Origin: a virus
Lineage: Duplodnaviria > Heunggongvirae > Uroviricota > Caudoviricetes
Length of the DNA stretch: 64,000 nt
Reading direction: 5' to 3' (one strand)
IMG/VR virus record: IMGVR_UViG_3300028888_000044
Location: 259,539-323,538 of that record
Both the position numbers and the translations under genes were made by a program. Each line of letters opens with the position of its first letter. The stretch's first letter is position 1. The notes beneath the pieces were generated by a model. That model was not told the origin of the DNA, did no database searches, and worked only from the letters and a program-made list of their open reading frames with translations. This document shows, piece by piece, positions 1,872 to 17,021 of the stretch.

Positions 1872-1949
1872 GAGGAAACTTACAGCAAAAGTTAATATTT
1901 GTAATTATCAGCCTTTTAAGCCGACAGAAAACAAAACCAACAGTTTCCT
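1872..1949 (+). ncRNA. GGAAAC-NN-ACAGCAA...AACAGTTTCCT motif RNA, copy 1 (contains Lys-like anticodon stem-loop)
   Basis: GAGGAAAC/GTTTCCT closing helix; TCAGC-CTTTTAA-GCCGA at 1908-1924. Confidence 0.6.
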
Positions 1950-2028
1950 TTTTTTATTTAAACAACAAGCTATGAGATAACAATTATAAACATCTAAAAA
2001 GACGTACTCAATGTGCGCCATAAACTTT

Positions 2029-2118
2029 GAGGAAACGTACAGCAAATTCTTTTTAAAGATTAATAGAATTAAAGCAGCATTTATCGGTCAGTTTCTTTTT
2101 TTATTTTAACCGTTTCCT
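2029..2118 (+). ncRNA. GGAAAC-NN-ACAGCAA...AACCGTTTCCT motif RNA, copy 2
   Basis: Same 5' and 3' conserved blocks as copy 1; internal AATTCT/AGAATT hairpin. Confidence 0.55.
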
Positions 2119-3396: not shown

Positions 3397-3470
3397 CTAC
3401 CCATAGCTTAGTCAGGTAAAGCATCGCACTTTTAATGCGAGGACCGTGGGTTCAAATCCCACTGGGTAGA
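3397..3470 (+). tRNA. tRNA-Lys(TTT)
   Basis: CTACCCA/TGGGTAG; TCGCA-CTTTTAA-TGCGA. Confidence 0.92.
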
Positions 3471-3477
3471 CAATATT

Positions 3478-3988: not shown

Positions 3989-4085
3989 GGGAAGGTAACG
4001 TCGGCAGACTGTAAATCTGCTCTGCTTTAACAAATTGGCGTATTGGACTTGCAGTAGGGGGGTTCGAGTCCCTCCCTTCCCACCA
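3989..4085 (+). tRNA. atypical tRNA-Tyr(GTA): no D-arm, very long variable arm, encoded CCA
   Basis: GGGAAGG/CCTTCCC-A-CCA; 8-nt connector TAACGTCG; GCAGA-CTGTAAA-TCTGC; ~37-nt variable region; GGGGG-TTCGAGT-CCCTC. Confidence 0.7.
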
Positions 4086-4088
4086 TTT

Positions 4089-4280
4089 GAGGAAACAGAC
4101 AGCAATTTTGTTTTAAAATTTTTGAGTTGTTGGTTCGAGTCCAACTTGGCAATACATAATTCATCAACACGTGGTATATACTTTTCGTGACAAAATAGAT
4201 GCGCTAGCAGTGGAAGTCTGTAAATTTTGTGTTACCAATAGCGCCAATAGGTAGAGCAAAAAACGTGCAAACAGTTTCCT
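4089..4280 (+). ncRNA. motif copy 3 enclosing a circularly permuted tRNA-like element
   Basis: 3' half (TTTTT-GAGTT-GTTGG-TTCGAGT-CCAAC-TTGGCAAT-ACA, 4119-4156) precedes 5' half (GTTACCAA-TA-GCGC-CAATAGGTA-GAGC-A-AAAAA, 4231-4263). Confidence 0.6.
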
Positions 4281-4388: not shown

Positions 4389-5027
4389 ATGGATAAGACA
4401 TATAAAATAGCCATTGTAGTCGATATGCAGCACGATTTCTATGCTGAAGACGGTACATTGAAAGTTGAGGGTGGACAGAAAGCGGTTGAAAATGCCGTTA
4501 AAAGGCTTAAGGACACTGATTATGATGTTATATGCTTTACAGCAGATTTCCATCCTTGCAATCATTCTTCTTTTGTGGAGAATGGAGGAACTTGGCCAAA
4601 GCATTGTGTCGCATATACACGAGGTTCTAACATTTCTATGGATTTGCTTGAAGCAGCATATTCCAACCCAAGTGTTAAGCTTGTTGAAGTTTTTGAAAAG
4701 GGAAAAGAATCAGACGAGGAAGAATATTCATTCTTGGATAATAGAGCAAACAAAATAAATTGGATGTTAAACTGTTTTACAAACAGATTCAAATGGGGTG
4801 ACTATTACTTCAAACAGACTAGTGATGAGAAATTTTATTTTAAATACCCTATGGAAATTGATGTGATGGGTATTGCTGGTGATGTTTGCGTATTAAACAC
4901 CCTCAAAGACTTGATTAGTTTAGGAATGGGCAAGTATCTTGCTGTGGTTGAAGACTGTGTTGCTTCACTTGATGATGGCAGTACATTGAGGAACTTCTGC
5001 ACTGAAAATAATATTAAAATGATTTGA
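4389..5027 (+). CDS. pncA: nicotinamidase / isochorismatase-family cysteine hydrolase
   Basis: IVVDMQHDFY, DFHPCNHSSF, WPKHCV, GIAGDVCV motifs typical of PncA. Confidence 0.88.
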   Translation: MDKTYKIAIVVDMQHDFYAEDGTLKVEGGQKAVENAVKRLKDTDYDVICFTADFHPCNHSSFVENGGTWPKHCVAYTRGSNISMDLLEAAYSNPSVKLVEVFEKGKESDEEEYSFLDNRANKINWMLNCFTNRFKWGDYYFKQTSDEKFYFKYPMEIDVMGIAGDVCVLNTLKDLISLGMGKYLAVVEDCVASLDDGSTLRNFCTENNIKMI

Positions 5028-6034: not shown

Positions 6035-6606
6035 TTTGGCTGTTGAAACTGTATAACAACTTGCCGACAAGATAACAGCGTACCACTCATTGCGTAACAT
6101 ATAGAGCTTGTCGGGAAATTAATGAGGAAGGATGTTGCTATACAATTGCAATAGTTTCAACAACCAAATGTTTTAAAATCTTCCAAAATCTCAAATGTCT
6201 GTGACTTGACTATGAGAGCGAAACAAGTAGTTTAATGAACGAACACTAATGAAGCTTAATGTATGCACAACGTTAAGTGGATTTTGAAGGGCGTGGGTTA
6301 GACCCCCACCTTGCAATCGTGTGAGGATTAAAGGAAGAGTACTGTATGAGAGATTACCAATTCATAGAGACTAATAAGAGAATTTAGGTTCGAATCCTTT
6401 GAAATAAGTTAACGAGGTAGACTCCTTATGAAGACTATGAAAGGTTACTTGCAAGAATTTCTAACAGTATAAATACCTCAAATAAGAGTGTTGTAGATTG
6501 TAGTACACAAAGCATTGTTGGTATGATGCGGCTTCGAGAGGGTGCAATGAAGGTTCGAGTCCTCATGTGATTCTACTACACTTGCAAGAGTCTACAACAC
6601 CTTATT
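6035..6606 (+). ncRNA. ~570-nt structured non-coding region (one large or several RNAs)
   Basis: Closed domains 6035-6168, 6322-6480 and 6481-6606; T-loop-like hairpins at 6386-6398 and 6551-6563; no ORF in track. Confidence 0.55.
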
Positions 6607-8905: not shown

Positions 8906-10036
8906 ATGGGTTGCTTTAATCGCACTGGGTTTTTAAGCCATTTGCCAATTGAATATGAAGATGAAATCGTAGTATTCTTGTTGGCAGATAATACAAAAGT
9001 GGAATATCAGACAAGTATTCCTTGTTATCCAAACAGTGGAGGATACACACCACTATGTCTTCCGTTTTTCGGAACTTATGATGACTATGGCGGTATCGAA
9101 AATGTAGTTGACGATTTCAATTCTCGTTATTTAAAAAAGAAAGTTGGTATGTCTGTTGAAGAGGTGTGCAAATTACTTCTAAGCCGTAATTCAATCGGTT
9201 TGACATACAGAAATATACTTACAGACCTTAAAAAGTTGAATGACCCATCATATAAGGAATATGGCAAGGATAGGGATATTAAGGAATATGAGAAACTTAA
9301 GGTAATCTACGAGAAAATCCTTGGTATTGACGAAGATTACGAAAATAAGGTTGATAAAGGCAGTGGTAAGTATAGGTGGGAAATTGATATGATGGCTGAT
9401 TCAACAATTATCTTCACTATGGAACTAAAATCCGTCTACGAGAAGATGGGTGAAGTCGCTGTAAGGGATTTTGAAGGCGATGTAGATTACGGATTCTGTA
9501 GACCAGATGACCATCATTATACACTTGAGGAAAAGTTTGACATAACTAACAAGTGCGTCCAATTGTTTGCGAACACAAGGAAAAGTGTAAATCCAATTAC
9601 TTTTGGTCTGACAGAGCTGTACAGTTTGATGGATGAAGATGTCCTAGGATTGGCCGAAGAAGGACAATTGGATGCAATCAAGGATTTGATGGACAAGCAA
9701 AGACAGTTGCACAAGTATTCTCACTATGATTTTATTGGGATTCATACTCGTTTATCTGGAAGTACGCCAATGCCGCTTGACTATCGTCTGTATGAAGGGT
9801 GCTTCGAGGATATATCCGAAATGAAGGAAGACGTTATCAAATACGTCAGATTCTTGGATATGATGCACATTCAAGGTGTGATATTCACACAGTCACCTTA
9901 TCATAATCAGTGCATAGACTATGACCGAGCTGTAGCTTATTGTGAAGAAATTCTTAATATTATCAAGGCTAAAAAGGCGGCATATGATAAAAAGGTTGCT
10001 GAATGCGATATAGATGAAGAGGACGAAGAAGAATAA
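8906..10036 (+). CDS. hypothetical protein
   Basis: 376-aa ORF. Confidence 0.85.
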   Translation: MGCFNRTGFLSHLPIEYEDEIVVFLLADNTKVEYQTSIPCYPNSGGYTPLCLPFFGTYDDYGGIENVVDDFNSRYLKKKVGMSVEEVCKLLLSRNSIGLTYRNILTDLKKLNDPSYKEYGKDRDIKEYEKLKVIYEKILGIDEDYENKVDKGSGKYRWEIDMMADSTIIFTMELKSVYEKMGEVAVRDFEGDVDYGFCRPDDHHYTLEEKFDITNKCVQLFANTRKSVNPITFGLTELYSLMDEDVLGLAEEGQLDAIKDLMDKQRQLHKYSHYDFIGIHTRLSGSTPMPLDYRLYEGCFEDISEMKEDVIKYVRFLDMMHIQGVIFTQSPYHNQCIDYDRAVAYCEEILNIIKAKKAAYDKKVAECDIDEEDEEE

Positions 10037-10044
10037 CAACAGAT

Positions 10045-10222
10045 GGGGGTGCTGAACGAGGAAGTGTTCAACCAGCAAATGTTGGGCTAGTCCTATTAGA
10101 GAATCTGAAATATTGGTCTCGTATTTTTCCAGTAGCACTTGAAAGCCGTGGTTGGCAAGTAGAGGAAGCGCGTTTAGTGAGATAGGTTAAAAGACGTGGG
10201 TTCGAATCCCATCACCTCCACA
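10045..10222 (+). ncRNA. compact tmRNA-like RNA with Ala identity
   Basis: GGGGGTG/CACCTCC (G3-U70), A73; 3' end AAGAC-GTGGG-TTCGAAT-CCCAT; no anticodon arm; ~176 nt. Confidence 0.6.
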
Positions 10223-11977: not shown

Positions 11978-12266
11978 TATGACTGACCAGTTATTTAAGT
12001 ATTTGGAAAAAATCTTCTTTCAAGATAATCATCCAAAGTATAGAAAATACTTTCCATTGTGGGTTAGCAACTTGACTGAAACACAAATAGAAGGATTCAA
12101 GCACGTTATGGAGGTTGACGAGAGTGGTATACTGAAACAGTGTTAACAAAATTTAACTATATATTATTAATAAAAATTATTAATTGTTTATATATTAGTA
12201 TAGAATAAAATACCAAAGGAGACCTTCGCAAGTAATTGAGGTGGTAAACCGTCCTCAAGATGGTGT

Positions 12267-12540
12267 ATATGCGGCATAATGGTATTTAATATATGGGCTT
12301 GAAGTTGGTACGTGAAACGCTGGTCGATGTATTATGCGGTAAGAAGACCAAACACCGTAGGGTTCGATTCCCACCGAGTCCGCGCGTTGGGGGATTGTGG
12401 TTGACGCTGGATAAGACATGCTTGTTATCCACACAGAAGAACAGACCAATTCTGAAAATACTTACATAATAATTACGTAATAAAGGTAAGGACGATAGGA
12501 TGCGGTAACTGGTAATGGTTTCAAACTACTGTTCGTATAT
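12267..12540 (+). ncRNA. tmRNA-like structured RNA with G3-U70 tRNA-like core (12295-12382); possibly circularly permuted
   Basis: GGGCTTG/CGAGTCC acceptor; GTAGGG-TTCGATT-CCCAC T-arm; second tmRNA-5'-like strand GGGATTG-TGGTTGAC at 12391; ends pair ATATGCGG/TTCGTATAT. Confidence 0.45.
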
Positions 12541-15149: not shown

Positions 15150-15441
15150 AGATAAAAGATGTAAGTTAAATGTTGGCTTGGAGGTAGCCATCATCTAAGG
15201 AGTGAGCAGAAAGTGCCTTGTGAGCCTTATGCGACTAGGAGTTAATAGCCTAGAACGTTCTTGACTGTGAAGGGAATATCCACAACATGACATTGTAAAC
15301 TCAATGGTCTGCCATATAAAGTTAGGTATTAGTCCTCCTTTATTCTTTATATGTTGGCAGTATGGCGAGGTTATGAACTCAACTTGCGGTAGGACATACG
15401 CGGTTTCTTTGGTGTAACAACACATAACTTTACTTTTATCT
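15150..15441 (+). ncRNA. mimic of 23S rRNA GTPase-associated centre (H43/H44, uL11 site) with 208-nt insert
   Basis: ATGTTGGCTTGGAGGTAGCCATCATCTAAGGAGT (15170-15203) and GTGTAACAACACAT (15412-15425) align to 23S nt 1057-1090 and 1091-1104 with compensatory changes; long closing helix AGATAAAAG..GTAAGTTA/TAACTTTAC-TTTTATCT. Confidence 0.8.
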
Positions 15442-15748: not shown

Positions 15749-15856
15749 GGTGACATAGTTTAATGGAAGAGTCCTAGGACATTAAATGAAAAACTTACTC
15801 GAAGAATGACCCCATATAGGGGGTTGGTAGGCGTTCGATTCGTCTTGTCACCGCCA
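15749..15856 (+). ncRNA. tRNA-like RNA without a canonical anticodon arm, encoded CCA
   Basis: GGTGACA/TGTCACC-G-CCA; AGGCG-TTCGATT-CGTCT; extended TTTAATG/CATTAAA arm; GACCCC/GGGGTT arm. Confidence 0.6.
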
Positions 15857-16682: not shown

Positions 16683-17021
16683 AATCGCGTATGGGTTCAA
16701 GTCCCTCTCATTGTCATAATAAAAACAGTAATGCATCTTCGAAGATTTCAATAAAAATAACAGCAAACAAGTTGAAACCTTTAGTGATAAAGGTTAGAAT
16801 GGTAAAAACTGAATTGGTGCTTAGAGCAACACTCTGAAACTAAGTATGTCGACAGTAGAGTGAAAACTTGTTTGATAAAGTTAGCCACCTTTCTAATTCC
16901 ATATTTATGAAATTTTTTTGAATAAATGGTTTCAATATACTATTTATTATAGAAGCTACATAATTGTTACATTGATTTATTTTTACATTAGCAATGTTGG
17001 TTAAAATAAATCATTTTTAAT

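Follow-up and report, generated by a model that had tools for sequence, protein, structure and literature searches.

Handle RNAs in the tRNA cluster of a jumbo phage

We analyzed a 64,000-nucleotide (nt) stretch from the 387,538-nt genome of a jumbo phage (the window; IMG/VR record IMGVR_UViG_3300028888_000044, genome positions 259539–323538), in which 24 transfer RNA (tRNA) genes lie within the first 17 kb. This tRNA cluster carries several copies of a repeated element, here called the handle, in which a short end stem and the motif ACAGCAA enclose a variable payload. Handles form a phage RNA family that is linked to a gene for a protein with a predicted Ro60 fold, and their payloads are enriched in anticodon-like hairpins.

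The motif starts exactly at window positions 1872, 2029, and 4089, and all three copies (1872–1949, 2029–2118, and 4089–4280, + strand) contain the 5' arm GAGGAAAC, ACAGCAA, AAC(A/C), and the closing GTTTCCT, at precisely the coordinates given in an earlier note made from the letters alone. A fourth copy lies about 230 nt upstream of the window start (genome 259305–259376). For the 15 fixed motif bases, we observed four exact occurrences in the 387-kb genome versus 0.0007 expected. Copy 1 consists of a 5' arm (1872–1879), ACAGCAA (1882–1888), a 54-nt payload, and a 3' arm (1943–1949), scoring 38.9 bits with model R1, and copy 2 has ACAGCAA at 2039–2045, a 66-nt AU-rich payload, and its 3' arm at 2112–2118 (36.0 bits). 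All four copies lie inside the tRNA cluster, with a U run after the closing GTTTCCT. The end stem is the only helix common to all predicted folds of the copies, and z-scores of about -0.9 to -1.0 show nothing exceptional about their folding. When the genome was searched with a covariance model from which it had been excluded, the three short copies were the sole matches (E 4e-8 to 3e-4). Neither gathering nor E-value thresholds in Rfam returned a family for any copy, consistent with the earlier view that this is not a named family. Promoter and terminator scans gave results at chance level, and no terminator hairpin was called at handle sites.

Copy 1 contains an anticodon stem-loop mimic with a Lys(UUU) loop (1908–1924, + strand). 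This hairpin had been described as near-perfect; it is present, but an A29.C41 mismatch leaves four of five pairs, and folded alone it reaches only -0.4 kcal/mol. The same phage has an ordinary tRNA-Lys(UUU) gene at 3397–3471. The claim that the copies enclose tRNA parts holds for copies 1 and 3 and fails for copy 2 and the upstream copy, whose AU-rich payloads have no recognizable tRNA part. Copy 3 does enclose a permuted tRNA-like domain, with the handle replacing the anticodon loop. On the + strand, its 3' half (4119–4153: anticodon-stem 3' strand, 5-nt variable loop, T-arm at 4129–4145, acceptor 3' strand at 4146–4152) precedes its 5' half (4232–4263: acceptor 5' strand, D-arm at 4241–4257, anticodon-stem 5' strand), and a 78-nt insert with two predicted hairpins (4154–4231) closes the acceptor stem. 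ARAGORN calls a tRNA once these swapped halves are re-ordered. The domain's anticodon stem consists entirely of A-U pairs, its acceptor stem is mismatched at one point, and it lacks CCA. Among the loci collected, neither the payload of copy 2 nor the insert of copy 3 had a homologue. Directly 5' of copy 3 is a tRNA-Tyr(GTA)-like gene (3989–4081) with a reduced D-arm and a long variable region; it was missed by ARAGORN and gave a weak tRNA-Sec match.

Twelve metagenome matches share the copy-1 stem and similar flanks, and several of the contigs carrying them also have a separate Lys handle RNA. Stem invariance among these matches was forced by the search pattern, leaving anticodon variation alone as evidence: eight read Cys, two Tyr, one Ser, and one Phe, all with C32 and A37. 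As judged from sequence, the 12 matches are likely orthologues of copy 1, and the anticodon varies within this lineage, with Lys read only by the copy in this phage.

A protein with a predicted Ro60 fold encoded upstream of the handles

The earlier note overlooked a candidate partner gene. Located 17 kb upstream of the handles on the same strand (genome 240956–242590), it encodes a 544-amino-acid protein in which DUF2828 and DUF7788 pass their cut-offs and vWA_Ro60 reaches 12.7 bits (cut-off 27.7). The Pfam TROVE profile (PF05731) had no match in the genome and a PDB sequence search of the protein was also empty, so its kinship with Ro60 is seen only by fold. In Foldseek searches with the predicted model (predicted local distance difference test score 89.8), all ten matches at E<=0.001 were Ro60, Rsr, or TROVE proteins, with Ro60, Rsr, and the Ro60 of phage phiLo matching over their full length at E 6e-9 to 4e-5. 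Structure-search Z scores for these three were 18.1, 15.3, and 14.9, compared with 10.0 for the next unrelated structure, and the fold match to 1yvp (Z 18.1) aligned 432 residues at a root-mean-square deviation of 4.3 Å. Residues D323, T324, S325, S327, and M328 of the vWA MIDAS (an adhesion site that depends on metal ions) are invariant. The protein is thus modeled as a HEAT-repeat ring with a vWA domain, the Ro60 fold.

Homologues of this Ro-like protein are present in 673 cultured phage records. An RtcB gene lies 3 kb behind the Ro-like gene (genome 245565–246896) and within 10 kb of it in 12 of 77 related loci, and the genome has three RNA_ligase-family matches. Between the Ro-like gene and RtcB, two adjacent open reading frames (ORFs) of 251 and 182 amino acids (genome 244188–245488) look by eye like tyrosyl-tRNA synthetase halves, possibly of a frameshifted gene.

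A stem of free sequence defines the family

The closing helix, previously treated as part of the motif, is kept as a stem across the family, but neither its sequence nor the AAC before the closing arm is conserved. The family constants are a 6–7-bp end stem of free sequence, two nucleotides, and ACAGCAA, with the signature AAG-n4-C-WW-ACAGCAA ... G-n4-CUG; GAGGAAAC is this phage's own version of the stem and not a family constant. We examined the stem in loci selected by the DUF2828 protein alone. In these loci, ACAGCAA occurs at 287 sites on the gene's strand versus 86 on the opposite strand, and the closing complement peaks 2–3 nt from ACAGCAA (132 and 130 sites, versus a baseline of 13–26), while control motifs are flat. 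The 105 handles in these loci have 59 different stems. In the selected set, 96.5% of stem positions are paired, a figure that is partly circular because members were picked for perfect stems, and we prefer the offset test.

The bare 5' pattern gave 94 matches in IMG/VR, about nine tenths of them chance, and we therefore required the closing arm. With this arm added, the pattern matched 50 IMG/VR loci, mostly within large-phage tRNA clusters. In GTDB genomes, 14 single raw matches came up. Most family members end in C-U-G rather than a U run, and in five loci (L191, L207, L213, L217, and L227) tandem handle arrays adjoin the Ro-like gene although tRNAs there are scarce or absent. In the papers searched, a set that left most subscription journals outside, we found no published description of this phage RNA family. 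Separately, in four loci (L162, L167, L186, and L187, near 9870–9920) a single handle precedes the match to the Ro-like gene by no more than about 130 nt. These putative leader elements could be autoregulatory binding sites.

Handles and the Ro-like gene occur together

Across 77 loci, 118 handles lie on the Ro-like gene's strand and two on the opposite strand, and the gene is present in 11 of 12 near-complete motif-carrying genomes compared with 5 of 17 tRNA-picked controls. The tallied phages are related, so these counts are not independent and are inflated. For a blind test, 35 viral contigs were chosen by a tRNA T-arm pattern and searched with a protein profile and a covariance model that left this genome out; a loose IUPAC pattern gave too much noise to score co-occurrence. 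Six contigs had both gene and RNA, 27 had neither, one had the protein only, and one, an 11%-complete fragment, had the RNA only (Fisher p 2.9e-5). All blind-test handle matches were on the gene's strand. Cultured phages of Salmonella, Mycobacterium, and Leptolyngbya (a Felixounavirus, an L-cluster mycobacteriophage, and a cyanophage) have handles immediately after the gene.

Payloads are enriched in anticodon-like hairpins

The earlier note had suggested a covariance-model search with tabulation of the enclosed loops. In a set of 140 dereplicated handles, 104 have payloads of 70 nt or less. Of these 104 short payloads, 52 contain a Y-U-NNN-R loop closed by four or more stem pairs, versus 21.3±4.0 (maximum 33) in shuffled sequences, and 27 have the same loop on a perfect stem, versus 3.8±1.9. 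This enrichment among homologues supports the proposal of a scaffold RNA family presenting anticodons. Lys(UUU) is the commonest payload anticodon (14 handles), followed by Cys, Tyr, and Pro, with the caveat that a few registers are misread by our anticodon picker. Handles from the blind-picked contigs include perfect hairpins for Lys, Thr(UGU), and Asn. The short payloads are too small for a whole tRNA and nearly all lack a T-arm. Long members are mostly permuted domains like those of the bacterial Y RNA YrlA, and in a few (L139, L141, and L123) the handle replaces the acceptor stem.

Comparison with Y RNAs and Class I RNAs

The systems closest to this one are the bacterial Ro60/Rsr proteins with YrlA or YrlB RNAs (RF02553, PMC4201824) and the phiLo Ro60 with Yrl1 and Yrl2 (PMC12135203; structures 9kop and 9l5y), which are alike in the fold of the ring protein. 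Handle RNAs share with Y RNAs a closing stem formed by their ends, accompanied by a conserved 5' motif, and a location on the gene's strand; RtcB is also nearby in both systems. The protein differs, being DUF2828/DUF7788 rather than PF05731 TROVE, with 10–15% identity to Ro60. The RNA motif also differs: handles have ACAGCAA in place of the Y RNA GNCGAAN0-1G or CGAA, and GNCGAAN0-1G is absent from all four copies. The YrlA topology (T-arm, loop-closed acceptor, D-arm) is found in copy 3 and not in copies 1 and 2 or the upstream copy. Handles have many paralogues per genome and can carry bare anticodon hairpins, whereas YrlA keeps both D and T arms. The criterion for YrlA places the RNA at most about 4 kb from a Ro60 orthologue and on its strand; here the handles are on the same strand at 17–21 kb, and in many relatives they are adjacent to the gene. 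In a genome search with RF02553 (cut-off 69 bits), no copy matched and the best scores (24.4 bits or less) fell on ordinary tRNAs; a long handle member of phage Snenia reached 39.3 bits. We infer that handle RNAs function much as Y RNAs do, but they are not YrlA members, as the GNCGAA motif and the Rfam score both fail.

In an Rfam scan of cyanophage members, the Dictyostelium Class I RNA family (RF01414) scored 39.3, 30.7, and 26.2 bits (cut-off 41.5), compared with at most 13.6 bits for the copies in this genome. Class I RNAs are about 60 nt long, with a 6-bp free stem, an 11-nt motif, and AAG and CUGU ends (PMC7919456). They are reported to be unique to dictyostelids, with a Dictyostelium upstream sequence element (DUSE) promoter and Rnp1A, an RNA recognition motif protein, as a partner (PMC7919456). 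Both groups have a 6-bp stem of free sequence, a motif ending in ACAGCAA by the 5' arm, a variable middle, and many genes. The family ends AAG...CUG match the Class I ends AAG/CUGU, while this phage's copies have GAG...CUUU instead. Copy 1 agrees with the 11-nt motif at 10 of 11 consensus positions, of which the final seven do not vary among the copies. The handle resembles Class I RNAs, and this likeness may reflect either homology or convergence.

The Felixounavirus Bas63 has a homologous protein, gp130 (26% identity, E 4e-27), encoded upstream of a tRNA array, with two handles behind the gene. The authors of the study on gp130 suspected Y RNAs somewhere within the tRNA genes, but the RNAs and the handle were not identified there (bioRxiv 10.1101/2024.10.10.617714). 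According to this preprint, gp130, a Ro60-like protein, counters the Ppl defense system.

A candidate tRNA-mimicking particle

We propose that each copy encodes a small non-coding RNA, which is probably excised from the tRNA-operon transcript; expression and RNA ends are what we infer here. The RNA ends would pair into a 6–8-bp stem beside an unpaired ACAGCAA, and this handle would serve as a dock for the phage Ro60-fold DUF2828 protein, much as the end stem of Y RNAs does for Ro60. That handle RNAs bind this protein is likely. The loop would hold an exchangeable payload imitating tRNA, either a bare anticodon hairpin, as in copy 1, or a YrlA-like elbow, as in copy 3, where the handle would stand in the anticodon's place. 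A Y-RNA-like particle of this kind, with the handle on a Ro-fold ring and the payload as a tRNA imitation, is the best explanation of the whole, and we consider it reasonably probable.

The use to which such a particle would most likely be put is to offer tRNA look-alikes to host defense proteins that recognize tRNA, sparing the real tRNAs. This bait role is in keeping with the abundance of paralogues, the switching of anticodons, and the overlap with known targets: PrrC targets Lys, AriB targets Lys, Thr, and Asn, and retron-Eco7 targets Tyr (PMC11464382, PMC12409363, PMC11555353). Phage tRNAs are known that counter PrrC, PARIS/AriB, and retron-Eco7, whose targets coincide with the most frequent payload anticodons (Lys UUU and Tyr GUA) and also with Thr UGU and Asn GUU. 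However, those phage tRNAs are whole, working replacements, while handle payloads are fragments unable to translate. We suggest decoys against tRNA-directed defenses tentatively, as one possible function.

Several points weigh against the proposal. Half of the short payloads, including those of copy 2 and the upstream copy, lack an anticodon hairpin, the copy-1 hairpin is weak, the Ro-like gene lies 17–21 kb from the handle RNAs in this genome, and the linkage counts are inflated by relatedness. PrrC requires a modified A37, and AriB also senses tRNA outside the anticodon arm (PMC12409363). Published tRNA-based counter-defense supplies real tRNAs, not baits (PMC11555353, PMC12409363). In the Bas63 preprint, complementation gave back the gene and not the RNAs (bioRxiv 10.1101/2024.10.10.617714), and Ppl is not known to be a tRNA cutter.

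The main rival keeps the particle but makes the RNA a tether or gate like that of RYPER: the payload would bring host or phage RNA enzymes (PNPase, RtcB, modification enzymes, or synthetases) to the ring, where they would repair or degrade RNA, and would not be a sacrificial bait. Tethering is the demonstrated role of bacterial Y RNAs (PMC4201824) and has been proposed for the phiLo Ro60 (PMC12135203). The RtcB gene behind the Ro-like gene, its nearness in 12 of 77 loci, and the three RNA_ligase-family matches are also in keeping with it, but RtcB is not near in the other 65 loci. Since a tether leaves unexplained the many paralogues with different anticodons and the switching between likely orthologues, we regard it as rather unlikely.

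The earlier note had offered a processing or ligation signal as an alternative, by which permuted or interrupted tRNAs would mature into working tRNAs. The tRNA call on re-ordered copy 3, the intact anticodon loop retained by some long homologues, and the presence of ligases and interrupted tRNA genes in the genome agree with such a signal. Nonetheless, we judge it very unlikely because most members enclose nothing able to become a tRNA: 104 of 140 payloads are at most 70 nt long, too short for a whole tRNA, and in L139, L141, and L123 the acceptor stem is replaced by the handle. The product of copy 3 would itself be a short-arm tRNA with five A-U anticodon-stem pairs and no CCA, and a normal tRNA-Lys(UUU) is already encoded at 3397–3471.

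Handles might instead act in cis, punctuating the tRNA operon as terminators, protective elements, or cleavage sites, rather than as free RNAs, as the U runs after all four copies and their position in the tRNA cluster could indicate. This is highly improbable, given the tandem arrays beside the Ro-like gene in places poor in or devoid of tRNAs, the C-U-G ends of most members, the absence of called terminator hairpins, and payloads selected for anticodon shape. Chance repeats or debris of DNA-level duplication, which the unremarkable folding z-scores and the mostly random IMG/VR matches of the bare 5' pattern might favor, are refuted by the protein-selected stem test and the blind covariance-model search, in addition to the four occurrences versus 0.0007 expected, the strand bias, the fixed offset, and the compensatory stems.

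Returning to the Y-RNA-like particle, we see an unlikely but consequential extension: a modular counter-defense particle in hundreds of phages, in which the ring would carry, through one handle, a library of small RNAs with differing anticodon baits that change over evolution to follow host tRNA nucleases, and the handle would be homologous to that of Class I RNAs. If this were true, the handle class would be an old RNA class common to phages and amoebae. The linkage offers a concrete candidate RNA partner for a protein without assigned function, including in the laboratory-tractable Felixounaviruses and mycobacteriophages, and gives unexplained non-coding parts of phage tRNA arrays a testable role, mimicry rather than supply. 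The likeness to Class I RNAs also suggests a candidate partner family for those orphan amoeba RNAs.

Other features of the region

Additional unusual tRNA genes occur in and around the cluster. Just before the window (genome 258475–259299; L095:669–1493), a tRNA-Met(CAT) gene has a 751-nt insert in its anticodon loop, encoding a 217-amino-acid ORF whose C-terminus looks HNH-like by eye; a similar insert start is present in a contig from a Bacteroidales metagenome-assembled genome (L249). Within the window, two tRNA-Leu genes with a short variable loop, one with anticodon AAG, lie at 829–983, and ARAGORN calls tRNAs at 10045–10222 and 15749–15856 only with inserts (Leu GAG with 102 nt and Ser ACT with 18 nt). 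A second small tRNA group on the minus strand (genome 342099–348123) includes a tRNA-Leu(TAA) with a 781-nt insert.

Other elements resemble non-coding RNAs. At 16745–16870, ACAGCAA stands before, not after, a 10-bp stem enclosing two hairpins (fold -27.9 kcal/mol); this element is unmatched by the handle model and is probably a different RNA. The segment at 15160–15430 mimics the uL11-binding domain of 23S rRNA and has short matches in three related phages (L105, L120, and L123). Long ORF-poor blocks at 1482–1860, 6035–6606, and 12260–12540 contain T-loop-like hairpins and have no Rfam match. The tRNA cluster also includes a nicotinamidase-like gene at 4389–5027 (NCBIfam E 1.6e-13, below cut-off). 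TAnnTTTG boxes, which we take to be the Bacteroidota -7 promoter element, precede tRNA runs at 508 and 2677 and suggest a Bacteroidota host.
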